Shown piece by piece: positions 7,122-55,458 of a DNA stretch of 64,000 nucleotides. The stretch is from the NCBI GenBank assembly GCA_016710095.1, contig JADJLL010000007.1, forward strand, positions 41,122 through 105,121, in the 5' to 3' direction. Origin of the DNA: Candidatus Eiseniibacteriota bacterium. Lineage in GTDB: Bacteria > Eisenbacteria > RBG-16-71-46. The translations under genes and the position numbers were made by a program. Each line of letters starts with the position of its first letter. The first letter of the stretch is position 1. The notes below the pieces were generated by a model, which made no database searches, was not told where the DNA came from, and saw only the letters and a list, made by a program, of their open reading frames with translations.

Positions 7122-7128
7122 GGGCGCC

Positions 7129-7995: not shown

Positions 7996-8099
7996 GGATC
8001 CGGCGCCACGCAGCAGCCGCGCCGAGCAGCAGCGCCGCGACGAGCGCCAGCGGGGCGAGCGCGGTGAGCAGCGCCGTGCGGACGGAAGGGAATCGCCGC

Positions 8100-13190: not shown

Positions 13191-13400
13191 ATGGGCAAGC
13201 TGCCCGAATTCTATGTCGATCAAGACCTTTGCACGGAATGTGGCGACTGCATCAAGGCAGTGCCGCAGGCATTTCGGAAGGTCGAGGATGAGGAAGTCGC
13301 CGAGGTCCACACGTGGGAGCTCGAAGACACTTTCATGCCACGAGTTCAGCAAATCATGACAGATTGTCCGGGACGGGCGATCCTCTGGCGTAAGAAGTAG
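13191..13400 (+). CDS. small single-cluster ferredoxin
   Basis: 69 aa, MGKLPEFYVDQDLCTECGDCIKAVPQAF...TDCPGRAI (CxxCxxC...CP pattern). GAGGAGAG RBS. Heads the por operon and is divergent from the apbE-rnf operon. Confidence 0.65.
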   Translation: MGKLPEFYVDQDLCTECGDCIKAVPQAFRKVEDEEVAEVHTWELEDTFMPRVQQIMTDCPGRAILWRKK

Positions 13401-13407
13401 GCCGGCC

Positions 13408-18935: not shown

Positions 18936-19609
18936 GCAAGCGGAGAACGCAGGCGCCGCAGGCGCCGAAGAGCGCCGCTTCCGAACGCCGATCGCGCCCG
19001 GCGAACACACCGCTGATCGCGGGAGCCGCCGTGGTGGCGCTCGCGGCGGCGGGACTGTGGTTCGCCTACTTCGGAAAGACACGAGCTTCCGGCACTCCGC
19101 ACGTGAGCGTGCGCGCCGACGGACTGACGACGCAGCAGATGCTCGACAGCGTGCGCACGCATTTCGAGGCGCATCAGTGGGACGCCGCGCTCGCCTGGGC
19201 GCACGCGAGCAACGTGTCCGAGCCGGGCAACGCGCGGCTGCTGCTCAACGAAGCGCTCGCGTGGCACAACTACGCGCAGGACGCGACGCAGCGCTGGCCG
19301 GGGCGCTCGGCGACGCGCACGAGCCTCGATCGCATCGAGCTCGAGAAGCACGCGTTCGCACTGCTCGATTCCGCCGAAGCCGTCGCGGGCTCCGACGAAG
19401 AGTGGGCGAACATCCGGCGCTGGCGCGGCACGCAGTACGAGGTGCTCGGATCGCCGCTCGACGCCGTGCAGGCCTACGAGGAGGCGCTCGCGCGGTTCCC
19501 CGGCCATCGCGCGACCATCGAGCGCTTCGGCTGGTTGCAGCGCCTGATCGTGCGCCCGTCCGATCCGAAGAGCGTCACGGCGGAAGACGCCGCGCCGCGC
19601 CCCCGTTGA
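18932..19609 (+). CDS. membrane-anchored hypothetical protein (single N-terminal TM)
   Basis: GTG start with perfect GAAGGAGG RBS and GTGA overlap with the preceding stop. TM helix LIAGAAVVALAAAGLWFAYF. No recognisable domain. Confidence 0.5.
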   Translation: MSKRRTQAPQAPKSAASERRSRPANTPLIAGAAVVALAAAGLWFAYFGKTRASGTPHVSVRADGLTTQQMLDSVRTHFEAHQWDAALAWAHASNVSEPGNARLLLNEALAWHNYAQDATQRWPGRSATRTSLDRIELEKHAFALLDSAEAVAGSDEEWANIRRWRGTQYEVLGSPLDAVQAYEEALARFPGHRATIERFGWLQRLIVRPSDPKSVTAEDAAPRPR

Positions 19610-22157
19610 AGGAAGCGCGGCGCGAAGCGTACGTCGTGATGCGGGAACGCCAGTCGAGGCGGACCATGCGCTGCGTGCGCGTTCCCATACCGGACGTCAG
19701 CCGCACGAAGTAGAGTCCGGCGCGCGCGCGGGTGCCGTCCGCGAGACGGCCGTCCCAGCGCCACGAATGGCGCCCGGCGGAGAACTCGCCCGAGGTCTGC
19801 GCAATGCGCCGGCCGCTCGCGTCGAGCACCTCGACACGCGCGGATCCGGCCTGCGGCAGCGAGAACGTGAGCAGCGCGGAGCCGCCCGAAGGATTCGGCG
19901 TCGGACGCGCCAGCGCGAACGCGAGCACACCGTCCTCGACGGCGTCCGTGCTCGGGTCGCGCACGGTCACCGCAGTGACGAGCGTGTCGCTCGAGGCGTT
20001 GCCGGCCGCGTCGCGCGCGGTGATGCGCACGAAGCCGTCCTGCGTCGCGGGCGGCTGCACCGTCCACGAGTACGAGCCGGTGTTCGCGAGGCCGTGCGCG
20101 ATGCCGTACCACGGACCGCTCGTGCCGCTCGTCGAGAAGTCGATGTCCACCGAGTCCACGCCCGCGTTGTCCGTCGCGGACCACTGGATCGTGGCGGGCG
20201 AGCCCATGTCCCAGGTCTCGCCACCGGTCGGGAGCAGGAGATCCACCGTCGGCGCGGTGACGTCCACGAAGTGGGCGGCGAACGTACGCGCGCTCACGAG
20301 CGTCAGCGCGAGCGGATTGCCCGCCGTCGTCGTGTCGCCGGTCCAGCCGTCGAAGGCCCAGCCCGGCGAGGGCGTCGCGGTGACCGTGACGGACGCGCCG
20401 TACGCGTACTGCGCGAGATCGGGCGACTTCGAGACGCTGCCCGTGCCCGTGTGCGAAACGGTGAGGGAGAGCAGGTCGGCGGCGAAGCTCGCCGCGATCG
20501 TGTGCGCGGCGACGACGTTGTTGAACGTGTAGCCCGTGACCGCGCCCACGGAAACTCCGTCGACGAGGACGTCGTTCACGTGCGCGCCCGTCTGCGGCGT
20601 GATCGTGAACGCCTGCGAAGAGGCCTGGTTCACGGCGACGGCGCCCGAGGGCGCGATCGTGCCGAGTGCGCCGGCGCTCGCCGTGATCGTCCACGTGATC
20701 GGCGTGAACGACGCCGCGATCGTGTGGTTCGCGTTGATCGCGCTGAAGGTGTAGCTCGTGGGCGTGCCGACCGACACGCCGTCCACGAGCACCGTCGCGA
20801 CCTTGTAGTTCGCGGACGGCGTGATCGTGAACGTGCGGCTCGTGCCCTCGGCCTGCAGCAGCGTGCCGCTCGGCGTGATCGTGCCGTTGGCGCCCGCGCT
20901 GGCGACGATGCTCCAGCGGTCGATCGTGAAGTTCGCGGCGCTGGTGCCCGTGCCGGTGTTGAAGGCGGCGTCGCGCGCGTTCACGCGCATGCGCAGCGTC
21001 GTGCCCGGCGCGTTCGGGATGGCCCAGTTGTACGTGCCCGTGTTCGCGATGCCCGTGGCGATCGTGTTGGTGTAGTTGACGCCGCCGTCGGTCGAATAGG
21101 CGATGTCCACCGACACGACGCCGACGGCGTCGGTCGCGGTCCAAGTGATCGCGTGCGTGGAGCCAGCCTTCCAGACTTCGCCACCGTTGGGCGAGGTGAT
21201 CGTGACGCTCGGCGGCGTGACGTCGCCGGGCACGACGACGCCGCGGCGCGTGGCCCACTGCGCGGCGTTCAGGAAGATCGCACTGTCGGCCTTGGCTCCC
21301 GCGAGTTCGGTCCATCCGGTGTACACCGTGTTGCCCGGCGTCGCCGTACCGTCGTCCACGGGCGAACTGTCGCCCACGTACACGACGCGGCCGTTGCCGT
21401 ACACCGAATGCGCGACCATCGCGTTGCTCGTGCTGCCCTGCGGCATGCCCAGCATCCAGACGTCCGCGGTCACGGTGGGATTGATCGCCGGGTAGAGCGT
21501 GAAGGTGGTGCCGTTGTGGAAGGCGATGCCGGTCGCGTTGCCCCACGGTCCCGTGATGATCGAATCCCCCGGAGCCGTGTTCACGTTCGTGCTGGTCTGC
21601 ACGATGTTGTTGTTCGTTTCACCGAACACCTGCGAACGGATGCCCCAGAGCTTCTGGGCGTCGAGCAGGTTCGTGATCTGCGGGGAGTCGAAACCGTCGT
21701 TGTTCCGGTCGGACTGTCCGTGATCCACGATCAGGATCAGGCCGCCGCCGTCCCGCACGAAGTTGAAGATCGCGATGGACTCCGCGGCCGTGAACTTGAT
21801 GTTCGGCTCGGGCACGACGAACAGGTCGTAGTTCGAAAGGTCGTACTGGTTCGACGCGTTCTGGTAGGTGATCCCGTTCGGCGACGCGAGCGTATGCACC
21901 GTGTAGCCACGCTTCACGAGCGCGACACCGAAGGCCGAGATGCCGCCGGTCCAATAGGACTCGGGAGTCGTGGCGGTGATGCCCGACTGGGCCGGGCTGG
22001 GCACCGGGAACGTGTCGTCGATGATCCAGTCGGCGTTGCCGGCCTGCTCGGCCTTGGTGTTGTCGAACAACGCCTTCTTCTGGGCGGACGCCGGTGCGAC
22101 GAAGAGCGCCAGGGCGAGAAGCGCGAGCGCGAGAGGTTTGAGCATGGTGTCTTTCAT
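19575..22157 (-). CDS. large secreted multi-Ig-domain surface protein with C-terminal T9SS/FlgD-Ig-type sorting domain
   Basis: Signal peptide (MKDTMLKPLALALLALALFVAPASA). Repeated Ig-like modules (VTPPSVTITSPNGGEVW…, VTAPTVDLLLPTGGETW…). C-terminal ~80 aa resembles T9SS type-A CTD (…GLYFVRLTSGMGTRTQRMVRLD). Confidence 0.7.
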   Translation of the reverse strand: MKDTMLKPLALALLALALFVAPASAQKKALFDNTKAEQAGNADWIIDDTFPVPSPAQSGITATTPESYWTGGISAFGVALVKRGYTVHTLASPNGITYQNASNQYDLSNYDLFVVPEPNIKFTAAESIAIFNFVRDGGGLILIVDHGQSDRNNDGFDSPQITNLLDAQKLWGIRSQVFGETNNNIVQTSTNVNTAPGDSIITGPWGNATGIAFHNGTTFTLYPAINPTVTADVWMLGMPQGSTSNAMVAHSVYGNGRVVYVGDSSPVDDGTATPGNTVYTGWTELAGAKADSAIFLNAAQWATRRGVVVPGDVTPPSVTITSPNGGEVWKAGSTHAITWTATDAVGVVSVDIAYSTDGGVNYTNTIATGIANTGTYNWAIPNAPGTTLRMRVNARDAAFNTGTGTSAANFTIDRWSIVASAGANGTITPSGTLLQAEGTSRTFTITPSANYKVATVLVDGVSVGTPTSYTFSAINANHTIAASFTPITWTITASAGALGTIAPSGAVAVNQASSQAFTITPQTGAHVNDVLVDGVSVGAVTGYTFNNVVAAHTIAASFAADLLSLTVSHTGTGSVSKSPDLAQYAYGASVTVTATPSPGWAFDGWTGDTTTAGNPLALTLVSARTFAAHFVDVTAPTVDLLLPTGGETWDMGSPATIQWSATDNAGVDSVDIDFSTSGTSGPWYGIAHGLANTGSYSWTVQPPATQDGFVRITARDAAGNASSDTLVTAVTVRDPSTDAVEDGVLAFALARPTPNPSGGSALLTFSLPQAGSARVEVLDASGRRIAQTSGEFSAGRHSWRWDGRLADGTRARAGLYFVRLTSGMGTRTQRMVRLDWRSRITTYASRRASFNGGAARRLPP

Positions 22158-22295
22158 CGATGGGGCGATGGGCGCTGCGGGGGCAAAGTGTCCCCTCAAT
22201 AGTAGAGGGGCGCGCCTTGCCGAAACAAACGAAACACCGCCGCGACGCCGGGCAATTTGCCCCGGAGGCGCGGCGGCGGTGCGTTCTGCAAAACT

Positions 22296-34915: not shown

Positions 34916-36256
34916 CTAGTGGTAGAGCGCGAACCCGGCGCCGAGTTCGGTGGCGCGTTCGTGCGTGAGGTTGCGGGAGTGGGTGGCGACCGCGGCGTCG
35001 AGGCCGAAGCGGCCGAGGCGCAGGCCGATGCCACCGGAAGTCTGGGTCTGGTTCTGCAGGTCGCGCGCGACGCCCGCCCGCAGCGCGAGGTGGCCCAGCC
35101 AGCGCTCGACACCCGCGCAGCTCGTCGTGCGTCCGAGCGCATCGCGCGTGGCGGCCCCGGCGAAGAGGAAGCCGGCGAGGCGCGTCGTCACGGTGATCTG
35201 TCCGGTCGCGGGGATCGTGCTCGTGAAGGGCACACCGTCGGCGACCGTGGTCTCGACGAGATCGCCCGTGAGCGTGTCCCGCGCGACGATCCGCTCGCGC
35301 ACCTTCCACCGCAGTTGCGTCGCGAGGTCGTTGGCGGCGAGACCGATCTCGGTGCGGCCGGCGACGATCACGAGTCCGGCGTCCAGTCCGTGCCCGAAGC
35401 CGCCCTGCTGCGGCGTGGCCGTGCGCAGGCGCGCGCGGTAGTCCACGTCCACGGCGTCGTCGCCGAACAGCGTGTCGGCGGTCGTGAAGCCGGCGGCGCT
35501 CTGCGCGTCGGCGTAGGCCAGGCCACGAATGAGCCGCGCGCGCACGCCGGCGTAGAGACCGGTGCGCGACTGGCGCGGATCGGGAGAGGAGCGCCACAGC
35601 GGCTGCGACCAACCGAGCAGGCCCTGCGCGGCGACCTGGCCGATCGCGTCGTCCGTCACTTCGTAGCGCGTCGTCGGCTGGAACGGCTCGGCGTCGATGA
35701 GCGCGCTCTGCAGCGGCGAGTTGAGCGCGAGCGAGTTCTCCGCGTGCACGAGCGGGCTCACGCCGACGAACATCCGGCGGTAGCCGATCGCGAGCACGGG
35801 CAGGCGGGCGACGACGGCGTACTCGTCCGCGTCGCGCGGCAGGACCTTGCCGACGTCGCCGAGATTGACGGCGAGCGAGTTGCGGCCGATCGAAACGCCG
35901 ATGTCGCCGGACGGCGCGGTCGGCGCGTCGAGCGACCAGTTCCACGGCACGTTCATGAGCAGGTTCGCCAGCTCGAACGCGTTGAAGTCGGGATCCTCGG
36001 GATCGAGCACCGGCGGATCCTGGAGCACGGGAATGACGCCGATCGGCAGCGAGATCGCGCGGCAGCCGTGCGCGGGGCGGGGCACGGAGTGGTACGCGAC
36101 GTTGACGCCGTCGGCGCCGGGGCCGCAGCCGGGAACGGGCGCGCCGCCCATGCCCAGCCGGCGTGCGCTCATGACCTGGGCGTGCGCGGGCGCGAACGAG
36201 GCCGCACACGTCGAGAGCAGTGCTGCGAGGAAGATCGCCTTCGGAAGCCGCTTCAT
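34916..36256 (-). CDS. putative outer-membrane beta-barrel protein (hypothetical)
   Basis: Signal peptide MKRLPKAIFLAALLSTCAASFAPAHA. Alternating amphipathic beta-strand composition. Terminal …GAGFALYH. Confidence 0.55.
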   Translation of the reverse strand: MKRLPKAIFLAALLSTCAASFAPAHAQVMSARRLGMGGAPVPGCGPGADGVNVAYHSVPRPAHGCRAISLPIGVIPVLQDPPVLDPEDPDFNAFELANLLMNVPWNWSLDAPTAPSGDIGVSIGRNSLAVNLGDVGKVLPRDADEYAVVARLPVLAIGYRRMFVGVSPLVHAENSLALNSPLQSALIDAEPFQPTTRYEVTDDAIGQVAAQGLLGWSQPLWRSSPDPRQSRTGLYAGVRARLIRGLAYADAQSAAGFTTADTLFGDDAVDVDYRARLRTATPQQGGFGHGLDAGLVIVAGRTEIGLAANDLATQLRWKVRERIVARDTLTGDLVETTVADGVPFTSTIPATGQITVTTRLAGFLFAGAATRDALGRTTSCAGVERWLGHLALRAGVARDLQNQTQTSGGIGLRLGRFGLDAAVATHSRNLTHERATELGAGFALYH

Positions 36257-36539
36257 GTGCCACCCCTCGGTGAGCGGAGTGCGCCGCGGCGATGATCCCG
36301 TGGCGATCCGCTCCGCCCGTGACGGGGGAGCGCCTCCGCGCGCCGTTCGTCTCGCAAGGTCGGAGCCAGCGGGGCGCGTTTCGGCCGTTCGTCCGCGCTT
36401 CGCGGGCGCCGTACCCCGCGTGCGGCGCGAAGGCGGGCGCGGGCATGCCAACCGGGGGCGCAGGGCGCTTTCGCAACCCTCGAACTCGCTCGCATTTCGT
36501 GTAGCATGCCCGCGGTTCGAACCGACCCTTGGAGGCGTC

Positions 36540-38129
36540 ATGGATTCGCGAATCATCGAGGCGGCGCGCACCGCCTTCCGCTCGAATGGCTCCACGCTCA
36601 CCCTCGGCGCGCTCGTGCATGCCGGAGAATGCAATGCCGAGCCGCTCGCCGCATTGCCGCTCGCCATGGCGAACCGCCACGGGCTGATCGCCGGCGCGAC
36701 CGGAACGGGCAAGACCAAGACGCTCCAGCTGCTCGCCGAGCAGTTCTCCGCGGCGGGCGTCCCGGTCTTCCTCGCCGACCTGAAGGGCGACCTCTCGGGG
36801 CTCTCCATGCCCGGCGAGGCGAGCGAGCGCGTGAACCAGCGCGCGAAGGACACGGGCTACTCGTGGAAGGCGGGCGGCTGCCCGGTCGAGTACCTGAGCC
36901 TCACCGGCAAAGGCGGCGCCCAGCTGCGCGCGACGGTGTCGTCGTTCGGTCCGCTGCTGCTCTCGCGCGTGCTCGGGCTCAACGACACGCAGACGAGCGT
37001 GCTCTCGATGGTGTTCAAGTACGCCGACGACCAGAAGCTCGCGCTGCTCGACCTGGCGGACCTGCGCGCGGTGCTTCAGTACCTGAGCGGTGACGGCGCC
37101 GAGGAACTCGCGAACTACGGCGGCATGAGCAAGGCGAGCGTCGGCGTGCTGCTGCGCGAGATGGTCGAGCTGGAACAGCAGGGCGCGGGCGCGTTCTTCG
37201 GCAATCCCGAGTTCGACCTCGACGACCTGCTCGCGGTGAAGGACGGCAAGGGGCTCGTGAGCGTGCTCCAGCTGCGCGACGTGCAGGACAAGCCCGGGCT
37301 CTTCTCGACGTTCATGATGTGGATGCTCGCGCGGCTCTACCACGAACTGCCCGAAGTCGGCGATGTGGACAAGCCCAAGCTCGTCTTCTTCTTCGACGAA
37401 GCGCACCTGCTGTTCGACGACGCGAGCAAGGAGTTCCTCGACCAGGTCGAGCAGGTCGTGCGGCTCATTCGCTCGAAGGGCGTCGGCGTGTGGTTCGTCA
37501 CGCAGAGCCCGAAGGACGTGCCGGCCGACATCCTCGGCCAGCTCGGCAACCGCGTGCAGCACGCGCTGCGCGCGTTCACGCCGGACGACGAGAAGGCGCT
37601 GCGCGCCGCCGCGCGTACGTTCCCGAAGACCGACTTCTACGACGTCGAGGAGATCCTCACCACGCTCGGCATCGGCGAGGCGTTCGTCACGGTGCTCGCG
37701 CCCAACGGCGCGCCGACCCCGCCGTTCGCCGTGCGCATGATTCCGCCGGCGTCTCGCATGGGTCCGCTCAGCGAAGGTGAGCTGGTGAGCGCGCTCGCTG
37801 CATCCGAGCAGGTGCGCGAGTACGCGGTGGCCGAGGATCGCGACAGCGCTCGCGAAGCGCTCGCGCGGCGCATGGCCGGTGACTCGGCGGCCGCGGCCCC
37901 GGTGGCACCTGCCGCTCCCGTGCAGCCGTCCGGAGTGCCGCCCGTGGCCGAACAGCAGCCCGATCCGGGCGCGCGCGCGGCCGAAACGGTGGCGGGCGCG
38001 GCAGCCATGGTCGGCGCGGCGCTCAACTCGCCCGTCGGCCGTCAGGTGGCGCGCACACTCGTAAGCACAGTGACGCGCGGTCTGCTCGGAGCGCTTCTGG
38101 GTTCACCGCCACGGCGCCGACGCCGATAG
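36540..38129 (+). CDS. DUF853-family P-loop NTPase (YjgR/HerA-FtsK-clade helicase-like ATPase) with Pro/Ala-rich C-terminal tail
   Basis: Walker A GATGTGKT, Walker B VFFFDEAH, overall YjgR-like organisation. GGAGG RBS. ~110-aa low-complexity tail (…AAAPVAPAAPVQPSGVPPVAEQQPDP…) ending just before the poly-G block. Confidence 0.8.
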   Translation: MDSRIIEAARTAFRSNGSTLTLGALVHAGECNAEPLAALPLAMANRHGLIAGATGTGKTKTLQLLAEQFSAAGVPVFLADLKGDLSGLSMPGEASERVNQRAKDTGYSWKAGGCPVEYLSLTGKGGAQLRATVSSFGPLLLSRVLGLNDTQTSVLSMVFKYADDQKLALLDLADLRAVLQYLSGDGAEELANYGGMSKASVGVLLREMVELEQQGAGAFFGNPEFDLDDLLAVKDGKGLVSVLQLRDVQDKPGLFSTFMMWMLARLYHELPEVGDVDKPKLVFFFDEAHLLFDDASKEFLDQVEQVVRLIRSKGVGVWFVTQSPKDVPADILGQLGNRVQHALRAFTPDDEKALRAAARTFPKTDFYDVEEILTTLGIGEAFVTVLAPNGAPTPPFAVRMIPPASRMGPLSEGELVSALAASEQVREYAVAEDRDSAREALARRMAGDSAAAAPVAPAAPVQPSGVPPVAEQQPDPGARAAETVAGAAAMVGAALNSPVGRQVARTLVSTVTRGLLGALLGSPPRRRRR

Positions 38130-38139
38130 AAGAGAGCAC

Positions 38140-39950
38140 GAGCGGTGTGGGGCGGTCGGGGCGCCCGCGCCCGGGGCGCACCCGGGGCGGGGGCACGCGC
38201 CGCCCCCGCCGACGACGGCCGCCCGCGGCGACGCGGACCAAAGCCACGCGCGGCGCCCCCCGGGGGCCGGCCCGCCGGCAACCCGCGCGCGGCCGCCCGG
38301 GGGGGGGGAGGGGGGGGGTTCGGCGCCCGACGTCCCGGGGGGGGCCCGCCCGACTTCCGGCCGGGGGGAACCCGCGCCGTTCGGGTCGCGGGGCCAGACA
38401 CGGCCGCGACCGCGCACCGGGGGGGGGGGCCGGGGCGGGCAGGGGGGCCGGGCCGTTCCCCGGGCCTCAAGCAAGGGGATGTTGTTGTTCAGCGAGCGGG
38501 GTTGGGGACACCCGCCCGCACCCGCCTCGCGCCCGCGGGGGGCAGGTTTCCGGGGCTTCCGGAGGGCGGGGGGCTGGGCGCGGGGGGTTGCCCCGCCCCG
38601 CGCCAGCCCGCGGGGGAGACGGGGGGCCTTCGGCGCCGCCCGGGCCGCCGGCGCCGGGGCGCACGCGCACGGGGGGGGCCGGGCGGGGGGGGGGTTGGCG
38701 AAGTCTGGGGGGGGCCCGGGCCCCGGGGGTTCACCGTCGGGGGGGGGGGTTCGCACAGACGTTGGGGCTAGCCCCGGGGGGGCGGGCACTGCCACCCACA
38801 CCGCCGCGAAGAAAAAGCGTTCGCCCGCACGCCCACCGGATTCGAAACGGGAGGGGAGGGGACGTTGCTCGGGGGGGCGCCCGGGGAAGCCTTCAGGCCT
38901 TCGGGGGGGCGCCCTACGACCCCCGCGTTGCCCGGGCGCACCGAGTCGCCGGGGCGCCACGACGCCGGATCGGGGGGGCGCCCGGGCCCGGCCCCGGGGG
39001 GGGCTCGGCGGGGGGCCGCCCGGCAGGGGGCGGGGCGACCTGAGCGCGTACTACCCCCGTTCGCGCTGGGTGGGAAACGCGGCGACCGCGCCCCGGGGGG
39101 GGGGGGGGGGCCAGGGGGGCCCCCCGGGGGGGGGGGAAGGGGTGGTCGGCGGGGCGCCCCGCAGCCTGGGCTGGGGGGGAGGGGGGGACGGGGAGCGATT
39201 TCGGGGAGGAGCCCGACGCGGGGAGGGATTTCGCCCGCACGCCGCAACTGTCGCCACCGGCGGAGGGGGCTGGGGCGGGGGCCCCCGCCCGGGGAGCAGA
39301 AGCGCAACCACCCCACGCCCGCACCCGAACACGACGCCCCCCCGGGCGGGCCGCCCCCCAGGGCCCTTCCAGGCTGACGACGGCCCGCTTCAAAAGCGCC
39401 GCGGACGGGGACAACACGAGCCCGCCGGGGGCGTACTACCCCGCCGACAAGACGGTCGATCGGGAGCGGGGGGGGGGCGTCCCGGACCCCGGGCCGGGGC
39501 GGGGGACCAACCCCCCGAGGAAAAAGACTGACCAGCCGAAGACGGCCTTCGAACGTCACCGCGAAGTCGATGGCGGGGCGAAGACGGCACGGGGGGGGGG
39601 ATTTGGGGGCCTGACGCCAGCGCGGGGGGGGGATGATCACGCGCCGGGGGGTTGTTGGTTGAACAGCTGGGGGGGGGGCGGGGGGGGGGGGGACCAGGGG
39701 CGGGGGGGGGAGAAGCTCCGGGGGAAGCCCGGGTACTGGGGGCAACGGGGAGGGGGAGGACGCTGGGGGGGGGGGCAGGGGAGGGGGAACGGGAAGGGAA
39801 ACTGGGGACGCCTCGGGGCCCGAGGGGGAGGGGGGGGCCGGGGACGCGCCCGACCCGGGGGGGGAGGGGGGGGCGCCGGGCCGGAAATCCGCTTCCGCCG
39901 AGTCTCTTCGGCCGGCGCGAGTTGACGATGCCGCCGTTGCTGGTGTAGAA
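38140..39950. repeat. 1.8-kb G-homopolymer-rich low-complexity block (G runs of 7-15 nt, strong G-over-C skew on + strand), most likely assembly/base-calling artefact
   Basis: Dozens of runs like gggggggggg interspersed with short normal-looking fragments. All six frames give only G/P/R-rich translations. No counterpart elsewhere except nt 1-150. Confidence 0.6.
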
Positions 39951-39975
39951 ACACCCGGCCCGAAACGACTTCGGT

Positions 39976-40051
39976 GGGGCTGTAGCTCAGCTGGGAGAGC
40001 GCTTGACTGGCAGTCAAGAGGTCGACGGTTCGATCCCGTTCAGCTCCACCA
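39976..40051 (+). tRNA. tRNA-Ala (anticodon GGC)
   Basis: GGGGCTGTAGCTCAGCTGGGAGAGCGCTTGACTGGCAGTCAAGAGGTCGACGGTTCGATCCCGTTCAGCTCCACCA. G3:U70 alanine identity pair. Anticodon loop CT-GGC-AG. Confidence 0.9.
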
Positions 40052-40759: not shown

Positions 40760-41377
40760 TCAAAGCACCGTGCGGTTCGAGCTCTTCACGACCGGCTCGG
40801 ACGGCTCCGGTTCCGGCGCGGGCTCGGCGCACAACGAGTCGATCGCCGCGCGCGTCGCGCTCGAGAGCCACTCGATCTCGCCCGCCTGCTTCGCCGCCAC
40901 GCGGCCCGAGCGATCGATCACGTAGGTGTACGGGATGCTCGGGCAGGGCAGACCCGCCGCGAGGTCCTTGCGCAGGTCGAGCAGCACCGGCAGCCGGAGC
41001 CGCATGCGCCCCACGTAACGCGAGACGCTCGGGAACGGATCGAAGCACACGAGCGCGACCTCGACCGCTCCGGGCGGCAGCGACCGTCGCAGCGAGTCGA
41101 GCGTCGTCGCCTGCGGGCCGGAGTGCCGCATCCACGGCGCCCAGTATTCGACGATCAGCACGCGCTGCCCCGGGACGAGCCGGCGCACGCCGACGGGCAC
41201 CATCGGCAGGGAAGCGTCGAAGGCCGCCGCCGGGCGATCCGCGGCGGGGGTGAGCGCGAGCGGTGTGGGTGTGGCGCCGGTGCGCTGCACGGTGAACAGC
41301 TCCGCCTTCCAGACGAGCGTGCCGAGCACTGCGAGCGCGGCGAGTCCGAGCAGGAGCGTGCGGACGCGCGGGGTCAT
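40760..41377 (-). CDS. TlpA/redoxin-like thioredoxin-fold protein lacking the CXXC motif, translationally coupled to cstA
   Basis: Signal-anchor MTPRVRTLLLGLAALAVLGTLVW. Thioredoxin-fold region with WAPWMRHS at the position of the redoxin WCxxC. GGGAG RBS. ATGA overlap with the cstA stop. Confidence 0.55.
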   Translation of the reverse strand: MTPRVRTLLLGLAALAVLGTLVWKAELFTVQRTGATPTPLALTPAADRPAAAFDASLPMVPVGVRRLVPGQRVLIVEYWAPWMRHSGPQATTLDSLRRSLPPGAVEVALVCFDPFPSVSRYVGRMRLRLPVLLDLRKDLAAGLPCPSIPYTYVIDRSGRVAAKQAGEIEWLSSATRAAIDSLCAEPAPEPEPSEPVVKSSNRTVL

Positions 41378-43223
41378 CGTGCGGCTCCCGCGTCGAGCGC
41401 GCCGGAAGGCTGCGCCTCGCCACGGACGTGCGACCACCAGTGCCGCGCGCAGTCGCCGACGATCACGACCATGAGCGCCATCACGACGAGCGTGACGACG
41501 CACTGGATGCGCGCGGGCGTGGGCGCGGCGGCGAACGCCGACCACAGGTCCGGCGCGCCGGCGGCGAGCGGGCCGCGCAGGTAGTTGAGCGACAGGTTGA
41601 GCCAGCCCGCGACGAGAGTGTTCGCGCACATGAACGCGAGCGGCACGAGCGTCGCCCATGTGTAGCGCGCGCGACCGTGGTTCACCATCCACGACGTCGC
41701 GATCGCGAGCGCGATGGCCGCGAGCAGCTGGTTCGCCACGCCGAGCAGCGGCCACACGGTGGTCACCGTGCCCGTCCACACGAAGTAGCCCCACGCGCAC
41801 ACCGACAGCGCGCTGAACACCGCCGCGGGCGCGAAGCCCGTCCAACCGCGAAGCTTCGGGAACGCCATGCTGCCGACCTCCTGGAACATGTAGCGCGTGA
41901 CTCGCGTGCCCGTGTCGATCAGCGTCATGACGAACATGGCTTCGAACATGATGACGAAGTGGTACCAGAAGCTCATGAGCCCGCCCAGCGCGGGCAGCTT
42001 CGAGAAGATCTGCGCCATGCCGACCGCGAGCGACACGGCGCCGCCGGGCCGTCCGGTGATGTTCTCGCCGACCTGCGCCGAGAGCGCCTGCAGGTGCACG
42101 GGCGTCAGGCCGAGCTTGGCGAACACTTCGGGCTTCGTGTTGATCGCGAAATAGTCGGCGGGCTCGAGCGAGCACGCGGCGACGAGCGCGATGATGCCGA
42201 CGAAGCCCTCGAGCAGCATGGCGCCGTACGCGACCGGGAGCATGTCGCGCTCGCGTTCGACCATCTTGGGCGTCGTGCCGGATGCGATGAGGGAGTGGAA
42301 GCCGGAGATCGCGCCGCACATGATCGTGATGAAGACGAACGGGAACATCGGTCCGGGAATCACGGGGCCGCCGCCGTGCACGAACGGCGTGAACGCCGGC
42401 ATGCGCAGCTAGGGTTCACGAGCAGCACGCCGGCGGCGAGCACGAGCATCGCGCCGATCTTGAGGAAGCTCGACAGGTAGTCGCGCGGGCAGAGCAGCAG
42501 CCACACGGGTAGCACCGACGCGATGAAGCCGTACGCCATGAGCGCGATCGTGAGCTGGCGGTCGGAGAACATGAGGAACGGCCGCAGCGCCGAGTCGTGC
42601 ACCCACGCGCCGCCCGCGACGGCGAGCACGAGCGCCACGACGCCGAACGTCGTCGCGGTCTTCACCGCGCCGGGCCGGATGCGGTACGTGAAGAGTCCCA
42701 TCACGAGCGCGATCGGTATCGTGCAGCCGATCGAGAACACGCCCCACGCGCTGTCGCGCAGCGAACTCACGACCACGAGCGCCATCGCGGCGAGCGCGAC
42801 CACCATCACGAACACGATCGCGATACTCGTCGCCGCGCCGGTGAGCGGGCTCACCTGCTCGCGCGCGATGTTCGCGAGCGAGCGCCCGCCGCTGCGCACG
42901 CTCGCCGTGAGGATGACGAAGTCGTGCACGCCGCCCGCGATCACCGAACCGAGCAGCAGCCACAGGAAGCCGGGCGCCCATCCGAACTGCGCGGCGAGCA
43001 CGGGGCCGAGCAGCGGACCGGCGCCGGAGATCGCGGCGAAGTGATGGCCGAAGAGCACCCAGCGTTTCGTGGGCACGTAGTCGTGGCCGTCGCGCGAGGT
43101 GTGCGCGGGCGTCGCGCGCAGGTCGTCGAGCGTGGCGACGCGGGCGGCGAGGAACACGCCGTAGGTGCGATAGGCGATGACCGCGATGAGCGCGGCGCAC
43201 GCGACCAGGTAGAGCGCGGGCAA
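41374..43223 (-). CDS. cstA: carbon starvation protein A (peptide/pyruvate transporter family), with apparent 1-nt deletion frameshift near 42411-42416
   Basis: N-terminal ORF (…GHHFAAISGAGPLLGPVLAAQFGWAPGFLWL…) and C-terminal ORF (MPAFTPFVHGGGPVIPGPMFPFVFITIMCGAISGFHSLIASGTTPKM…) are contiguous CstA sequence in two frames. Inserting one base after CCT restores …VNP-x-LRMPAF…. TTG start. Confidence 0.8.
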
Positions 43224-43302
43224 GGGATGGATCCTCCGGCGTCCGTGAGGTGCGAGGCGAGCGGCCGGAGTCTACGCAGGCGGACCTGTGCGCGCCATGA
43301 AA

Positions 43303-43334
43303 GAAGCGCCGGGCTCGTGGGAGCCCGGCGCTTC
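43303..43334 (-). terminator. candidate rho-independent terminator after the gspE-like gene
   Basis: 14-bp stem GAAGCGCCGGGCTC-GTGG-GAGCCCGGCGCTTC, followed on the minus strand by TTTCATGG (weak T tract). Confidence 0.4.
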
Positions 43335-43351
43335 GGTGCGCGTTCGGGGAA

Positions 43352-45307
43352 TCAGGACGCCTTGCGGACGTTCGGTGGCACCGGCATGAGCTTGGAATCG
43401 GACTTCCGCGCCGGTGGCTGGTGCGCGAGGTGATCCGCGCCGCAGGCCGGGCAGTGCTTCCACTCGGGCCGCATCCGCTTCTGGCACTTCTCGCAGTGCT
43501 CGCCGATGAAGCTGCCGCACGCGGTGCAGTACTCGAAGTCCTGCGACACGACGTGCGTGCAATGCGGGCAAACCTTCACGTGCTGCTCGGCGAGGTACAC
43601 GACGCGCGTGATCTCGTCGACGGTGGTCTGTCCCGTGAACGCCTTGTCGAGGCCGTCCTGGCCGATCGGGGTCATGCCTTCCTCGATCGCGACGCGACGG
43701 ATCTCGCTGTCGGACGCGTTGCTCGTGATGAGGCGGCGGACGTTGTCGCTCACCTCGAGCAGTTCGAAGATGCCCGTACGCCCGGCGTAGCCCGAGCCGT
43801 CGCACGAGGGGCAGCCCGCGCCGCGCCACAGCTCGATCGGCTCGTCGTCGGCCGGCGCCGATGCGCTGAGCCGGGCGATGGCCGCGGAGTCGCCGGCGTA
43901 GGACTCCTTGCACTTGGGGCAGAGCGTGCGCACGAGCCGCATGCTCACGACGCCGACGAGCGAGGTCGCGACCATGAACGGTTCGAGGCCGAGGTCGATG
44001 AGGCGCGTGACGGCGCCGGCGGCGTCGTTCGTGTGCACCGTGCTCAGCACGAGATGTCCGGTGACGGACGCGCGGAACGCGATCTGCGCCGTCTCCTTGT
44101 CGCGGATCTCACCGATCATGATGATGTCGGGATCCTGGCGAAGGATGGCGCGCAGCGCGCCGGCGAACGTCTTCTTCGCCTTCTCGTCCACGTGCACCTG
44201 GTTGATGCCCGGGATCTGGTACTCGACCGGGTCCTCGACCGTGGTGATGTTGCGCGTCACGTGCTGCAGGTGGCGCAGCGCCGCGTAGAGCAGGGTGGAC
44301 TTGCCCGAGCCGGTCGGACCGGTCACGAGGATGATGCCCTGCGGGCGCGACAGGAACTTCTTGAGCCGCTTGAGATCGCGCTCCGTGAAGCCGATCGAGT
44401 CGAGTTCGACGCGTGCGCGCGACTGGTCCACGACGCGCATGACGACCTTCTCGCCGTTCGTGATGGGCAGCGTCGAGACGCGCATGTCCACGCGACGTCC
44501 GCCGATCTCGGCGACGAGCCGTCCGTCCTGCGGCTGGCGCTTCTCGGCGATGTCGAGGTTCGCGAGCACCTTGATGCGCGAGACGATCGCGCCCTGCGTC
44601 CACTTCGGCAGGCGCTGCTCTTCGCGCAGCAGGCCGTCCACGCGCAGGCGCACGATGAGATCGTTGTTCTGCGGCTCGATGTGGATGTCGCTCGCGCGTG
44701 CTTCGACGGCGCGGTGCAGCAGCCAGTTCGTGAGGCGCACGATGGGGCGGCCTTCGGCCTCCTTCATCAGCTCGTCGATCGCCTGGCGTTCCTCGGTGTC
44801 GTCGACGGCGCTCACGACGATGTCGTCTTCGTTCGAGATGATGCTCTGGATCACCTCGTTCACCGACGTGTCGATGTGGTAGTAGCGCTCGATCGCTTCG
44901 AGGATCTGCGACTGCGCCGCGAGCACCGGCTTGATGAACATGCCGGTGTGGAAGCGCAGGTCCTCGATGCCGTTCACGTTGAGCGGGTCGGCCATGGCCA
45001 CGACCAGCGTGCGCTTGGACTCGATGTCCACCGGGATCGCGAGGTACTTCCGCGCCTGCTCTTCCTTGATGAGCTGGAGCGCGCGCTCGTCCGGGGCGGT
45101 CTCGTCGAAGTTCACGACCGGCAGCCCGAGCTGGCGGTGCAGCCAGTTCACGAGCACGTGCTCGTCCAGCAGTCCGAGGCGCACGAGCGTCGCGCCGAGC
45201 AGCTGACCGGTGCGCTTCTGCTCGGAGACGGCGCGTTCGAGGTCTTCCGGAGAGACGAGCTTGTTCTCGACGAGGAGGTCGCCGAGACGACGGTGCGTGG
45301 TGGCCAT
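43352..45307 (-). CDS. GspE/PilB/MshE-family secretion ATPase with N-terminal MshEN-like c-di-GMP-binding domain and C-terminal Cys-rich zinc-ribbon extension; orphan (no cognate T2SS/T4P genes nearby)
   Basis: Tandem MshEN-like motifs (RLGDLLVENKLVSPEDLERAVSEQ / LLGATLVRLGLLDEHVLVNWLHRQ). Walker A GPTGSGKST. Asp box and His box of T2SS-E ATPases. Tetracysteine CPKC…CPSC. Extra C-terminal CPHCTHV…CTACG…CEKC…CPACG. Confidence 0.85.
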   Translation of the reverse strand: MATTHRRLGDLLVENKLVSPEDLERAVSEQKRTGQLLGATLVRLGLLDEHVLVNWLHRQLGLPVVNFDETAPDERALQLIKEEQARKYLAIPVDIESKRTLVVAMADPLNVNGIEDLRFHTGMFIKPVLAAQSQILEAIERYYHIDTSVNEVIQSIISNEDDIVVSAVDDTEERQAIDELMKEAEGRPIVRLTNWLLHRAVEARASDIHIEPQNNDLIVRLRVDGLLREEQRLPKWTQGAIVSRIKVLANLDIAEKRQPQDGRLVAEIGGRRVDMRVSTLPITNGEKVVMRVVDQSRARVELDSIGFTERDLKRLKKFLSRPQGIILVTGPTGSGKSTLLYAALRHLQHVTRNITTVEDPVEYQIPGINQVHVDEKAKKTFAGALRAILRQDPDIIMIGEIRDKETAQIAFRASVTGHLVLSTVHTNDAAGAVTRLIDLGLEPFMVATSLVGVVSMRLVRTLCPKCKESYAGDSAAIARLSASAPADDEPIELWRGAGCPSCDGSGYAGRTGIFELLEVSDNVRRLITSNASDSEIRRVAIEEGMTPIGQDGLDKAFTGQTTVDEITRVVYLAEQHVKVCPHCTHVVSQDFEYCTACGSFIGEHCEKCQKRMRPEWKHCPACGADHLAHQPPARKSDSKLMPVPPNVRKAS

Positions 45308-45387
45308 CCTTGGTTCTCCACAATGGGGGGAAGGAGTCCTGCGCCCGTTATCGGCCCGGCCTCCGGGGCCATTGAGCGTTGATTGCC

Positions 45388-47373
45388 ATGGGAATGGCTT
45401 CGCATGGCGTCGTGGCGCGCGCGCGTGCTAGCGTGCCCGCCGTGACTTCCGACACTTCTCCCGGCGCCCCGACGGGGCCGCGCCCCTCGACCGAACATTC
45501 ACTGCCTCGCATCTCCGCCCAGTCGCTGCTCGGCCCGGAGGGCGTGAGCGGGACCGCTCATTTCCACGACCTGCTGCGCTCGGCGACCCGCCAGTGCCGC
45601 AAGCTCGTGGACTGCGAGCAGGTCCGTCTCTGGGTTGCCCGCCGTGGCGGCCGCCGGCTCGTGGCGCGCGACTTTCCCGAGGAAAATCCGGGAGCGCAGC
45701 CCCAGGAGCACCGCCTGCCCCGTGGCGAAGGTGTCGCGGGATGGGTGATGACGCACCAGCGCACGCTGCGTCTCGGCGCGGGCGACGTCCTGCCGGACGA
45801 CGTGAAGGGCGCGCGCACGCCGTTCCGCAGCGCGCTCGTGATTCCGCTGCTGCGCCGCGGCGAGCCGTTCGGCGCGATCGAGTGCCTCGACAAGCGCGGC
45901 GGTGATTTCACCGACGCCGATTTCGACCGGCTCGAAGTGGCCGCCGAGAGCGTCGCGTTCGCGCTCGACTACGCGCTGCTGTACCAGGAGATCGAACGGC
46001 GCGCGCTCGAGAAGGAAGTGCTGCTCGACATCACGCGCGCGCTCGCGTCGCCCTTCGATCTCGAGGAAGTGATCGAGGAGATCTTCAAGTCGCTGCGCCA
46101 GGTCGTGGACTACGACGCGGCCGCGATCTACCTCGTGCAGCGCGGCACCGGCGTGCTCGAGATGGTGAGCGAGCACGGCTACCCGACGGGCTCGGAGCAC
46201 GCGTTCGAGCTGCAGATGGGGCAGGGCATCGTCGGCTGGGTCGCGAAGACGGGCGAGAGCGTGATCGTGCCCGACGTGAGCACGGACAAGCGCTACGTCG
46301 CCGCGCGGCCGCAGACGCGCAGCGAGATCGCGACGCCGCTCATGCTGCAGGGCCGCGTGTTCGGCGTGTTCAACCTCGAGAGCGAGCACGTGGACGCGTA
46401 CCACGAAGGCCACCTCGAGATGCTCGCCGCGTTCGCGGCGCAGGCCGCCGTCGCGGTCGAGCGCGCGCGTTCGGCGCGTGACCTCATGGAGCGCCGCCGG
46501 CTCGAGAAGGAACTCGCCATCGCGCGCGAGATCCAGAAGTCGTTCCTGCCCGCGGGCGCGCCGATCATTCCCGGCTTCGACCTCGCCGGCACGTCCATCA
46601 CGCACGACGAGGTGGGCGGCGACTACTTCGACTTCATTCCCGTGTCCGAAACGCGGCTCGGTCTCGCCGTGGCGGACGTGTCGGGCAAGGGCATTCCCGC
46701 GGCGCTGCTCATGGCCGGTTTCCGCATGAGCCTGCTCGCCGAGATCCGCAACGAGTTCGCGATCCGCGCCGTCATGCGCAAGGCGAACAGCCTGCTGCAC
46801 GAGAGCACCGAGCGGGACAAGTTCGTCACCGCCTTCTACGGCGTGCTCGACTGGCGGAACAGCATCCTCATCTTCAGCAACGCGGGGCACAATCCGCCGC
46901 TGGTCATGCACCGCGACGGCACCACCGAGCACCTGCTCGACGGTGGCCTCGCGCTCGGCGTGCTGCCGGATTCGAGCTACGAGGAGCGCCCGATCGCGCT
47001 GCGCGAGGGCGACGTGCTCGTGTTCTACACGGACGGCGTCTCCGAGGCCGAGAACGAGCACGGCGAGCAGTTCGGGGAGGAGCGCCTCGAGCAGGTCGCG
47101 CGCGAGAACGCCGACCGGCCCGCCGCCGACCTCCTGGCCGCCATCGTGGACGCCGTGGTCGTGTGGACGGGGGAGCGCGGTCCGAGCGACGACCTCACCC
47201 TGATCGTCGTCCGGAAGACCGGCCCGACCCCTGAGGGCGGCCGGCTGGCGGCATGCCCCCGGCCCGGTGACGCCGTCGCGGCACCGCACTCCGCGCGGCA
47301 TCGGAACTCCAACTCGAAGTTCAAGCATTACTTGAAGCGCGTCATTCTTGACCGCTCCAAACGCGTTCGATAG
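45388..47373 (+). CDS. GAF-GAF-PP2C (SpoIIE/RsbU-type) serine/threonine phosphatase
   Basis: Two GAF-like regions (…GVAGWVMTHQRTLRL…, …GIVGWVAKTGESVIVPDVSTD…), then a PP2C domain (…GGDYFDFIP…ADVSGKGIPAALLM…FYTDGVSEA…). Start ambiguous (TTG 45379, ATG 45388 or 45394). Confidence 0.8.
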   Translation: MGMASHGVVARARASVPAVTSDTSPGAPTGPRPSTEHSLPRISAQSLLGPEGVSGTAHFHDLLRSATRQCRKLVDCEQVRLWVARRGGRRLVARDFPEENPGAQPQEHRLPRGEGVAGWVMTHQRTLRLGAGDVLPDDVKGARTPFRSALVIPLLRRGEPFGAIECLDKRGGDFTDADFDRLEVAAESVAFALDYALLYQEIERRALEKEVLLDITRALASPFDLEEVIEEIFKSLRQVVDYDAAAIYLVQRGTGVLEMVSEHGYPTGSEHAFELQMGQGIVGWVAKTGESVIVPDVSTDKRYVAARPQTRSEIATPLMLQGRVFGVFNLESEHVDAYHEGHLEMLAAFAAQAAVAVERARSARDLMERRRLEKELAIAREIQKSFLPAGAPIIPGFDLAGTSITHDEVGGDYFDFIPVSETRLGLAVADVSGKGIPAALLMAGFRMSLLAEIRNEFAIRAVMRKANSLLHESTERDKFVTAFYGVLDWRNSILIFSNAGHNPPLVMHRDGTTEHLLDGGLALGVLPDSSYEERPIALREGDVLVFYTDGVSEAENEHGEQFGEERLEQVARENADRPAADLLAAIVDAVVVWTGERGPSDDLTLIVVRKTGPTPEGGRLAACPRPGDAVAAPHSARHRNSNSKFKHYLKRVILDRSKRVR

Positions 47374-47512
47374 TCTGCGGCCCGTCTTTTCAGCCGCTTC
47401 GGCCGCCCCGGTGTGTTCCGCCGGCCCCTCCTCGAGGGCCCGCGAGTGCTCGTTCGTCCCGGTCCCGGCCGCCGCATTCCAGTCCCGTTGCCGCAAGTTC
47501 GGAGGCCTGTCC

Positions 47513-53743: not shown

Positions 53744-54238
53744 ATGTACGTCCCCGGTGAAGCGAGGGTGGTGCCCTCACCGCGCCGGGCGGGAAACTCC
53801 TGGCGACGCGCGGTGCTGGTGCTGCTGGCCGCGTGCTCGCTGCTCGGGCAGGGCGAACGCTTCCGGGTGGATCCTCGTTTCCGTAGTCCCAGCGCGACGT
53901 TGCTCGCGTACTGGGAGGCGCTGCGTCAGGGCGACGGAGACGGCGCCTACGAGTGTTTCGTCGAAGGCCGCCACGAGCTGCCGATGCCCGGAGCGCTGTG
54001 GTTCCTCCCGCCGACGGACGACCTGTGGCTGGCCGGATTCCGGTCGCTGCCGGTCACCTCGGGCCGTGTCATGGTGACGTACGAGGTGCATTACCGGCCC
54101 AGGGGCTCCGGCGAGGAGCGGATGTTCAAGACGGGTAGCGAGCTCGTTCGCTCGCACGGCGAGTGGCGGATTTCGCAGCCGCTCGGCGAGGTCAGCATGC
54201 CCGAGTGGAAAGGCGTCCCCGGACCGATTGACACGTGA
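53744..54238 (+). CDS. secreted hypothetical protein (NTF2/SnoaL-like fold suspected); start uncertain
   Basis: Signal peptide-like WRRAVLVLLAACSLLGQG. ORF extends upstream to 53576 with no clear RBS. Confidence 0.4.
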   Translation: MYVPGEARVVPSPRRAGNSWRRAVLVLLAACSLLGQGERFRVDPRFRSPSATLLAYWEALRQGDGDGAYECFVEGRHELPMPGALWFLPPTDDLWLAGFRSLPVTSGRVMVTYEVHYRPRGSGEERMFKTGSELVRSHGEWRISQPLGEVSMPEWKGVPGPIDT

Positions 54239-54336
54239 CGAGCCGCACTCCTAACCTGCCGCGCACGAAATCCAAGCCTGCGCGGCAAGCGGGACGGCAT
54301 TTCGATCACACATCCGGAGCCCACACGAGGAACTGC

Positions 54337-55458
54337 ATGACGCGCTTGTTCGCCCGTGTTTTCGCGGTCGCCGCTGTCGCCGCCGTGCTCGCGTCACCCG
54401 CGAGCGCCACCAAGTACGCCGGCGAGTTCATGAAGATCCCGGTCGGCGCGCGCGCCGTGGGCATGGGCAGCGCGTTCACCGCGGTCGCCGACGACGCCAC
54501 CTCGCCGTACTGGAACCCCGCGGGCATGGTGTACCTGCCGTATCGCGAGGCGTTCCTCCAGCACGCCGAGCAGTTCGGCTCGCTCGTCAATCACGACTTC
54601 GGCGGCGTCGTCATGCCGCTCAAGACCACCGAGGATCACCGCGCCGCGATCGGCGTCGCGCTCACCTGGGTGGGCGTCACCGACATTCCGATCACGCCGC
54701 GGCCGGGTGGTCTCGCGCCGGGGCAGTGGCTCGACTACGGCACGGACAACGATCCGAGCACGCCCGACGCGGACGGCACGCAGGGCAACGGCAAGTGGGA
54801 CCGCGGCGAGCGCCTGCTGCTGAGCGCCGAGGACCTCTACATGGCGAGCAGCACCGACCTCGCGCTGCAGGTCTCGTACGCCCAGCAGCGCGGACGGCAC
54901 TGGGCGTTCGGCGGCACGGTGAAGTTCGTCCGCCAGAGCATTCCCGACTCGGTGTTCGCCGAGCACGCGACCAGTTTCGGCGCGGGCCTCGACGCCGGCG
55001 CGATCTACATGGTCAACGATGCCGTCACGCTCTCGGCCGTCATGCACGACCTCACGACCACGTACATCAGCTGGAACAGCGGCGTGCGCGAGTTCGTCGC
55101 GCCGACGATGGTGACCGGCTCGAGCTTCAACTTCTCGCCCGCGCCCAACCAGGCGCTGACGTGGGCGGTGGATCTCGGCTGGAACTTCGAAGGGCGGAAG
55201 TTCGACAGCCAGGTCAAGATGGGCCCGGTCACCGCGGACCTGCACACCGGTCTCGAGTACTGGTATCGCAGCACGCTCGCGCTGCGCAGCGGGCTTTCCG
55301 GCAAGGACCTCACGTTCGGCGCCGGCGTGCGCTACCGCCATTTCGGCGTGGACTACGCTGCGTCGCTCAACCGGTTCTTCGCGGCGGACGACCCGAACTT
55401 CCCGGACGACAAGAACCTCGACGCGACCCATCTCGCATCGGCGTCGTTCAGCTGGTGA
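54337..55458 (+). CDS. FadL/PorV-like outer-membrane beta-barrel protein
   Basis: Signal peptide, then KIPVGARAVGMGSAFTAVADDATSPYWNPAGM (the N-terminal signature of FadL/PorV/UPF0164-type barrels). C-terminal aromatic residue (…SFSW). GAGGAA RBS. Confidence 0.6.
   Translation: MTRLFARVFAVAAVAAVLASPASATKYAGEFMKIPVGARAVGMGSAFTAVADDATSPYWNPAGMVYLPYREAFLQHAEQFGSLVNHDFGGVVMPLKTTEDHRAAIGVALTWVGVTDIPITPRPGGLAPGQWLDYGTDNDPSTPDADGTQGNGKWDRGERLLLSAEDLYMASSTDLALQVSYAQQRGRHWAFGGTVKFVRQSIPDSVFAEHATSFGAGLDAGAIYMVNDAVTLSAVMHDLTTTYISWNSGVREFVAPTMVTGSSFNFSPAPNQALTWAVDLGWNFEGRKFDSQVKMGPVTADLHTGLEYWYRSTLALRSGLSGKDLTFGAGVRYRHFGVDYAASLNRFFAADDPNFPDDKNLDATHLASASFSW

Follow-up and report, generated by a model that had tools for sequence, protein, structure and literature searches.

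A stand-alone PilB-like ATPase with a motif for c-di-GMP binding and a double zinc ribbon at its C-terminus, from a Candidatus Eisenbacteria bacterium

The stretch of DNA analysed here, referred to as the window, comprises 64,000 nucleotides of contig JADJLL010000007.1 (assembly GCA_016710095.1, positions 41,122 to 105,121 of the forward strand) from a Candidatus Eiseniibacteriota bacterium. Its G+C content is about 70%, and the closest relatives of its proteins are labelled Candidatus Eisenbacteria and share at most 95% identity with them. The gene of interest encodes a PilB-like ATPase, a candidate motor for the assembly of type IV filaments, which combines an MshEN front, a full PilB/GspE core and a C-terminal double zinc ribbon (Table 1). 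It is divergent from the gene for a phosphatase with two GAF domains and a PP2C domain, and on its downstream side lie cstA and an open reading frame (ORF) for a TlpA-like protein.

Table 1. Features of the ATPase locus and its flanks (window positions; residue numbers refer to the ATPase).
Feature	Position	Strand	Basis
PilB-like ATPase gene, 651 aa	43352..45307	-	ORF and translation, Pfam/NCBIfam domains
Tandem c-di-GMP motifs, residues 7-59 (four-helix bundle)	45131..45289	-	NCBIfam NF053729
MshEN/GSPII C-terminal subdomain, residues 60-147	44867..45130	-	Pfam PF05157, 2.2e-23
N2 and C-terminal ATPase domains, residues 184-568	43604..44758	-	Pfam T2SSE, 451.6 bits, 2e-135
Double zinc ribbon, residues 580-623	43439..43570	-	Pfam DZR (PF12773), 36.7 bits, cutoff 27.3
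Terminator-like hairpin just past the ATPase stop codon, then UUCUUUCAU	43304..43333	-	-39.1 kcal/mol, z = -5.9 vs shuffles
Divergent intergenic region, three conserved blocks	45308..45441	.	Alignment of five Eisenbacteria-type loci
GAF-GAF-PP2C (SpoIIE-family) phosphatase	45442..47373	+	Pfam SpoIIE 7e-51, GAF 6e-36, 2 stretches
cstA (carbon starvation / pyruvate-peptide transporter family), two ORFs	41374..43223	-	Pfam CstA profile split 2-274 / 275-560
Exported thioredoxin-fold (AhpC/TlpA-like) ORF without CXXC	40760..41377	-	Weak fold support

The ATPase frame is intact, with a G+C content at third codon positions (GC3) of 0.92 that is typical of coding genes in the window. The core carries the Walker A motif GPTGSGKST, the Asp box, the Walker B motif DPDIIMIGEIRD and the His box, the C-terminal domain contains the canonical tetracysteine (C463/C466/C499/C502), and the residues of all of these motifs are invariant in an alignment of 79 sequences. 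In over 120 orthologues of full length, 65-95% identical, the catalytic, zinc-binding and c-di-GMP-motif residues are invariant. In an AlphaFold2 (AF2) model, the MshEN domain and the ATPase core are predicted confidently.

The control of pilus motors by cyclic di-GMP (c-di-GMP) via MshEN domains is already established. In the ATPase, residues 7-59 cover the whole of the 53-position NCBIfam profile NF053729 ('c-di-GMP_motif') with 61 bits against a cutoff of 38, so the tandem MshEN-type motifs described in an earlier note, made from the sequence alone, are significant at the profile level. The region consists of motif 1, RLGDLLVENKLVSPEDLERAVSEQ (residues 7-30), the spacer KRTGQ and motif 2, LLGATLVRLGLLDEHVLVNWLHRQ (residues 36-59), and matches the 24-5-24 arrangement for c-di-GMP binding defined for Vibrio cholerae MshE (PMC5013675); the consensus tested was RLGxx(L/V/I)(L/V/I)xxG(L/V/I)(L/V/I)xxxxLxxxLxxQ, taken twice with a 5-residue spacer. 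Among 121 family members, R7, G9, Q30, L37, G38 and Q59 are nearly invariant, and motif 2 opens in every case with Met or Leu and never with Arg (L36 here). As the GSPII-B domain of Thermus PilF also has a Leu at this position (L196) and binds c-di-GMP with an affinity of 6 nM (PMC11731258), this change is no argument against binding. The AF2 model places four helices in the region (residues 8-14, 20-33, 37-43 and 49-60; predicted local distance difference test, pLDDT, about 90). A gene of the HD-GYP type (HHERWDGRGY) overlaps the stop codon of the ATPase in the relative L004, in keeping with a c-di-GMP connection. The product, encoded at 12001-12963 of L004/L005 in one Eisenbacteria-type lineage, is a membrane-anchored HD-GYP-type phosphodiesterase (HD_5, 126 bits).

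Assignment of the ATPase to a class draws on structures, pairwise identity and curated profiles. Its best matches among solved structures are the pilus ATPases Thermus PilF (6f8l, 523 bits), Myxococcus xanthus PilB (3jc8, 490 bits) and Geobacter PilB (5tsg, 476 bits), all of which align from residue 6 to about residue 570, whereas GspE structures reach 420-427 bits in alignments that begin only at residue 68 or 172, with no match at the N-terminus. Over the full length (residues 6-570), the ATPase is 41-46% identical to canonical PilBs of many phyla. The equivalog profiles TIGR02538 for PilB (590.7 bits, profile positions 2-562 of 564) and TIGR02533 for GspE (597.4 bits) score below their cutoffs of 675.65 and 630.25, respectively. 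Because the structure matches and the PilB identity combine with scores below both equivalog cutoffs, the ATPase is, on sequence grounds, PilB-like rather than GspE-like and belongs to a separate subfamily.

The feature that sets this subfamily apart is the C-terminal extension with four Cys pairs, which the earlier note had recognised and which scores above the Pfam DZR cutoff. The pairs C580/583, C594/597, C605/608 and C619/622 follow the spacing CxxC-x10-CxxC-x7-CxxC-x10-CxxC, and all eight Cys residues together with W616 are invariant in an alignment of 79 homologues. The zinc ribbon is modelled metal-free and weakly by AF2 (pLDDT about 50-66 over residues 573-625), and the basic tail that follows it to residue 651 is disordered in the model from residue 626 onward. 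HMMER was run exhaustively against 1.84 billion cluster representatives (50% identity); among the best 150, 48 have the same zinc-ribbon pattern directly after the ATPase, in the form CxxC, about 10 residues, CPxC, about 7, CxxC, 6, W, 2, CP[YF]C. Named zinc-ribbon PilBs come from the Nitrospirota, Binatia and Thermodesulfobacteriota. An approximate neighbour-joining tree was built from the ATPase core. Of the 59 pattern-bearing sequences (57 of them tree leaves), 56 fall within one clade of 82 leaves, which also takes in relatives that carry one ribbon, a C-terminal receiver or both, as well as some Planctomycete PilBs. Zinc-ribbon PilBs most likely constitute a multi-phylum subfamily that is usually encoded apart from pilus genes. 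A literature search found no paper combining PilB with a double zinc ribbon, and one on pili or motility in Eisenbacteria found nothing usable.

Ten PilB-like ATPases of the same clade (P0159, P0168, P0181, P0186, P0203, P0212, P0232, P0259, P0262 and P0263) carry putative C-terminal CheY-like receivers, assigned by eye from D-D-x motifs and in some cases located after a zinc ribbon. Apparent matches to the tail in four canonical PilB loci, extending to query residues 618-623, were rejected as read-through of stop codons by tblastn, and none of these loci encodes the zinc ribbon.

We favour, with somewhat better than even confidence, the reading that the ATPase is a c-di-GMP-gated, PilB-type motor that assembles a type IV filament, with a type IVa-like pilus as the likeliest kind, and that the zinc ribbon serves as a docking or regulatory tail. 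The domains, the integrity of their motifs, the membership in the subfamily and the gene contexts are direct observations; we infer that the MshEN domain binds c-di-GMP, that the ATPase functions in a pilus and that the tail has such a role. The catalytically intact ATPase would act as a hexamer to power type IV filament assembly in this Candidatus Eisenbacteria bacterium, and the MshEN four-helix bundle would bind one c-di-GMP and thereby gate assembly, with V. cholerae MshE and Thermus PilF as precedents. The double zinc ribbon would be a subfamily-specific add-on, probably a docking or regulatory module on the ATPase, and appears to occupy the position at which related proteins have a receiver domain. 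The gene itself may be a stand-alone, monocistronic unit with its own upstream region and terminator-like hairpin, and the genes for its machinery would lie at another genomic site. A monocistronic transcript is suggested because a strong hairpin follows the stop codon; this hairpin was spotted by eye and then folded, and a consensus promoter and terminator scan of 43100-45600 found nothing and did not call it. Rfam and tRNA scans gave no match near the ATPase locus.

Several observations weigh against this reading. Motif 1 has K16 in place of the consensus turn Gly, both equivalog scores fall short of their cutoffs, and the tree that defines the zinc-ribbon clade is a quick approximation computed without support values. 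Among about 55 ORFs of the window, Pfam detects no T2SSF, PilT, secretin, N_methyl, Peptidase_A24 or second T2SSE domain; tblastn of the window with a PilC and with the ATPase yields no further match, and a six-frame scan of the window for the prepilin motif finds none. These scans bear out the earlier observation that secretin, pilin, GspF/PilC and prepilin peptidase genes are missing from the neighbourhood, here over the full 64 kb. Pilus or secretion genes are likewise not found within ±10 kb (about 22 kb) of the ATPase gene in the relatives L001, L002 and L004, whose ATPases are 86%, 70% and 69% identical. In the Eisenbacteria-type contigs L092 and L099, cstA lies directly beside the phosphatase gene, with the ATPase gene absent and no remnant of it detected. 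Because these two contigs have no such gene at this position, the ATPase may be dispensable.

The stand-alone position is a genuine peculiarity, since, of the canonical PilB loci that span 15 kb or more, 46 of 50 have a PilC-like gene, and none of the four Eisenbacteria loci has one. The canonical loci belong to a control set of 79 that, beside a single Eisenbacteria locus, were among the matches listed in a peptide-pattern scan of genome contigs, where generic PilB-wide peptides such as QDPDIIMI among the patterns probably account for the large number of matches. A tblastn search for PilC in 80 phosphatase-centred metagenome contigs also found none. Outside the Eisenbacteria, a prepilin or GspH gene adjoins the zinc-ribbon PilB gene in two of five loci and pilC lies at 4 kb in one of five. 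In L088, a prepilin gene is located 800 bp downstream (N_methyl, 37 bits), in L170 the genes directly upstream are a GspH and minor-pilin-like cluster (GspH at 29.7 bits, with two ORFs that match N_methyl weakly) and an ORF of 419 aa, and in L086 a T2SSF gene lies 4 kb away; L087 and L169 contain no filament gene.

These same contexts bear on the strongest rival explanation, a distinctly less probable one, in which the ATPase is a second, specialised motor for a distinct type IV filament or an apparatus resembling a type II secretion system (T2SS), as MshE is beside PilB in Vibrio, and the main pilus has a canonical PilB of its own from another locus. It is consistent with the zinc-ribbon types forming a clade of their own apart from most operon-encoded PilBs, with the rarity of pilC beside their genes relative to the canonical loci, with the score under the PilB equivalog cutoff and with the GspH-like pseudopilins neighbouring the L170 gene. 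However, no second PilB-like gene is seen in the Eisenbacteria sequence covered (about 64 kb plus flanks), and the same clade includes Planctomycete PilBs with pilC nearby.

The divergently encoded phosphatase has a second GAF domain at approximately 46057-46458 and a PP2C domain (PF07228, 173 bits) at approximately 46648-47214 with intact metal-binding Asp motifs (GGDYFDF, ADVSGKG, YTDG and SDD). Its gene and orientation are as described in the earlier note; the spacer is 134 bp and not the 80 bp given there, because the start codon conserved in relatives, and called in L001, is GTG 45442 (other starts upstream are TTG 45379 and ATG 45388). The intergenic region contains three conserved blocks, GTTATCGGCC (45347-45356), ATTGAGCG (45371-45378) and GTGCTAGCGTGCCCG (45425-45439), and no match to the sigma-70 consensus. 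At the other end, the last ~50 codons of the phosphatase overlap a conserved promoter-like stretch upstream of trpS. An apparently conserved 20-aa tail of the phosphatase was rejected as a protein feature, as it reflects conserved DNA upstream of trpS that runs past the stop codon of the L001 phosphatase. The conserved DNA upstream of trpS, at 47325-47512, resembles a promoter or leader (TTGACC, 17 nt, TAGTCT) set into the 3′ end of the phosphatase ORF, and trpS probably starts at ATG 47513 rather than TTG 47348.

The ATPase-phosphatase pair is present in all four distinct Eisenbacteria-type genome loci and in seven of nine informative metagenome contigs, namely those with a phosphatase of at least 60% identity and enough upstream sequence. 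The surrounding genes are syntenic as well, namely trpS-scpA-scpB-cupin-rluB in one flank and, in the opposite flank, the genes for the TlpA-like, DUF6580 and HerA-like proteins, and because they are equally syntenic the adjacency of ATPase and phosphatase is not specific evidence for a joint function. Among phosphatase homologues of at most 53% identity with enough upstream sequence, none is divergent from such an ATPase gene; contig L130 contains a partial ATPase-like match about 2.5 kb downstream of a phosphatase homologue. The pair occurs in none of the five zinc-ribbon PilB loci outside the Eisenbacteria and, by tblastn, in none of the 79 canonical PilB loci. The pairing is at most suggestive and amounts to lineage-specific synteny. 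In the other two of the nine informative contigs, L092 (1433-5094) and L099 (2-2215), cstA is located directly upstream of the GAF-GAF-PP2C gene. In L088 (7180-13167), the zinc-ribbon PilB gene lies between a divergent CHASE2-Ser/Thr kinase gene and the downstream prepilin gene, and the kinase may parallel the PP2C gene that adjoins the Eisenbacteria ATPase.

The phosphatase is central to a second rival explanation, anticipated by the earlier note as signalling rather than secretion, in which the ATPase has left filament assembly and acts as a c-di-GMP-controlled signalling ATPase with the GAF-GAF-PP2C protein in a partner-switching-like circuit. Retention of the pair across the contigs and genome loci listed above, with phosphatases of 61-88% identity and even in L004, where both outer flanks have changed, speaks for such a link, as does the kinase beside the L088 gene with its hint of Ser/Thr phospho-control, and M. 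xanthus PilB provides a precedent with its documented signalling role in exopolysaccharide control (PMC5544727). Against this, the pair is confined to one lineage amid equally conserved flanking genes and is missing beside the more distant phosphatase homologues, L092 and L099 retain the phosphatase without the ATPase, and no STAS or RsbW-like partner is found in the window. A STAS protein or a stand-alone HATPase_c protein is absent from the approximately 55 window ORFs of at least ~80 aa and from the gene lists of L001-L005, and the designation 'partner-switching-type' has its sole basis in the PP2C fold, which stands, with no STAS protein or anti-sigma kinase encoded alongside. Furthermore, the catalytic machinery of the ATPase is wholly conserved, identity to PilB is substantial and pilin genes flank its zinc-ribbon relatives, leaving the signalling proposal unsupported and, in our estimation, quite unlikely. 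In the reading that we favour, the phosphatase is a phylum-level syntenic neighbour for which a regulatory link by Ser/Thr phosphorylation is possible.

On the downstream side, cstA adjoins the ATPase gene as first noted, and is broken by a 1-nt deletion near 42405 in comparison with the intact genes of L001 and L092; the break marks either a pseudogene or an assembly indel. The TlpA-like ORF follows with its ATG overlapping the cstA TGA as ATGA and with WMRHS at the position of the CXXC motif, so that the earlier claim of a translationally coupled TlpA-like protein without CXXC stands in these respects; the thioredoxin fold itself reaches 21 bits in the AhpC-TSA profile, below the cutoff of 26 (26.6 bits for the L002 orthologue). 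In all six gene orders with the flank recovered, this ORF lies downstream of the ATPase gene on the same strand, separated from it by cstA, by the HD-GYP gene or by nothing. The frameshift in cstA and the two related contigs that lack the ATPase gene could be taken to indicate that a pilus system has been lost and that the ATPase gene is what remains of it, in decay or dispensable, an explanation rendered very improbable by the intact, compositionally typical frame and the more than 120 full-length orthologues with invariant functional residues.

A broader proposal, which we regard as improbable at present, is that PilB-like ATPases with add-on tails (a double zinc ribbon or a single one, a receiver domain, or both ribbon and receiver) form a distinct multi-phylum class of type IV filament motors, encoded apart from the machine, that read c-di-GMP at the N-terminus and a protein-borne signal at the C-terminus. 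The latter could be set by Ser/Thr phosphorylation through the PP2C phosphatase in Eisenbacteria and through the CHASE2-Hanks kinase in L088. Should the tail act as a second port for regulation, pilus assembly would have a new point of control in several phyla that have been little studied (Eisenbacteria, Nitrospirota, Binatia and Thermodesulfobacteriota), and the distance between the genes of these motors and those of their machines would be easier to explain. Should the tail have a purely structural role, the locus would be an ordinary PilB gene in an odd location.

Other parts of the window show features of their own. The HerA/DUF87-like ATPase at 35847-38129 (+), unrelated to pilus ATPases, is syntenic in L001, L002 and L004 and is followed by a large uncharacterised protein. 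In the window, the region that follows (38000-40000) has 80% G+C, a strong G and A skew and long ORFs in several frames with no Pfam match; at this position relatives encode a 687-724-aa protein with a faint tetratricopeptide repeat signal after the HerA-like ATPase. A tRNA-Ala (GGC) is located at 39976-40051. At 7000-11000 and 13300-15800, several ORFs for rnf and pyruvate:ferredoxin oxidoreductase overlap one another in differing frames or have a mixed G+C profile over the codon positions (for example 13360-14388 with 13809-15716, and 8747-10918), which suggests further frame breaks, perhaps in an indel-rich assembly. An ORF at 54232-55458 (+) has weak matches to PorV of type IX secretion and to DUF5723, and a protein encoded at 19575-22295 has a FlgD_ig-type C-terminal domain; together they offer a hint of type IX-style export in this organism.

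Comparison with known systems places the locus among characterised phosphatases and motors. The neighbouring phosphatase resembles RsbU/SpoIIE/SiaA-type PP2C proteins in its SpoIIE domain with intact metal-binding Asp motifs, but has two GAF domains as its input, has no STAS or anti-sigma kinase partner gene in the window and scores far below every NCBIfam equivalog cutoff. With GspE/EpsE (4PHT, 1P9R) the ATPase shares the core and the zinc tetracysteine, whereas its TIGR02533 score is under the cutoff, its alignment with these structures starts at residue 68-172 and no T2SS genes lie near it. V. cholerae MshE (PMC5013675) has the same 24-5-24 module followed by a GspE/PilB-type ATPase, and the curated motif profile is passed here; unlike the ATPase gene described here, however, the MshE gene lies inside the MSHA pilus operon, and the present motifs differ in the Lys at the turn Gly of motif 1 and in the Leu/Met rather than Arg that opens motif 2. 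The PilBs of M. xanthus (3JC8) and Geobacter (5TSG/5ZFR) align in the MshEN-type N-terminus, N2, C-terminal ATPase domain and tetracysteine (476-490 bits), whereas the present protein is longer by 80 C-terminal residues, which form the double zinc ribbon and the basic tail, has neither pilT nor pilC beside its gene and falls below the TIGR02538 cutoff. The top solved match is Thermus thermophilus PilF (6F8L; GSPII-B 8PKZ/8PQU), whose GSPII-B motif 2 is likewise opened by a hydrophobic residue and not by Arg. Whereas the Eisenbacteria protein has one MshEN domain, PilF contains three GSPII domains and lacks a zinc ribbon at the C-terminus. Its gene, pilF, is presumably also encoded apart from the other pilus genes.

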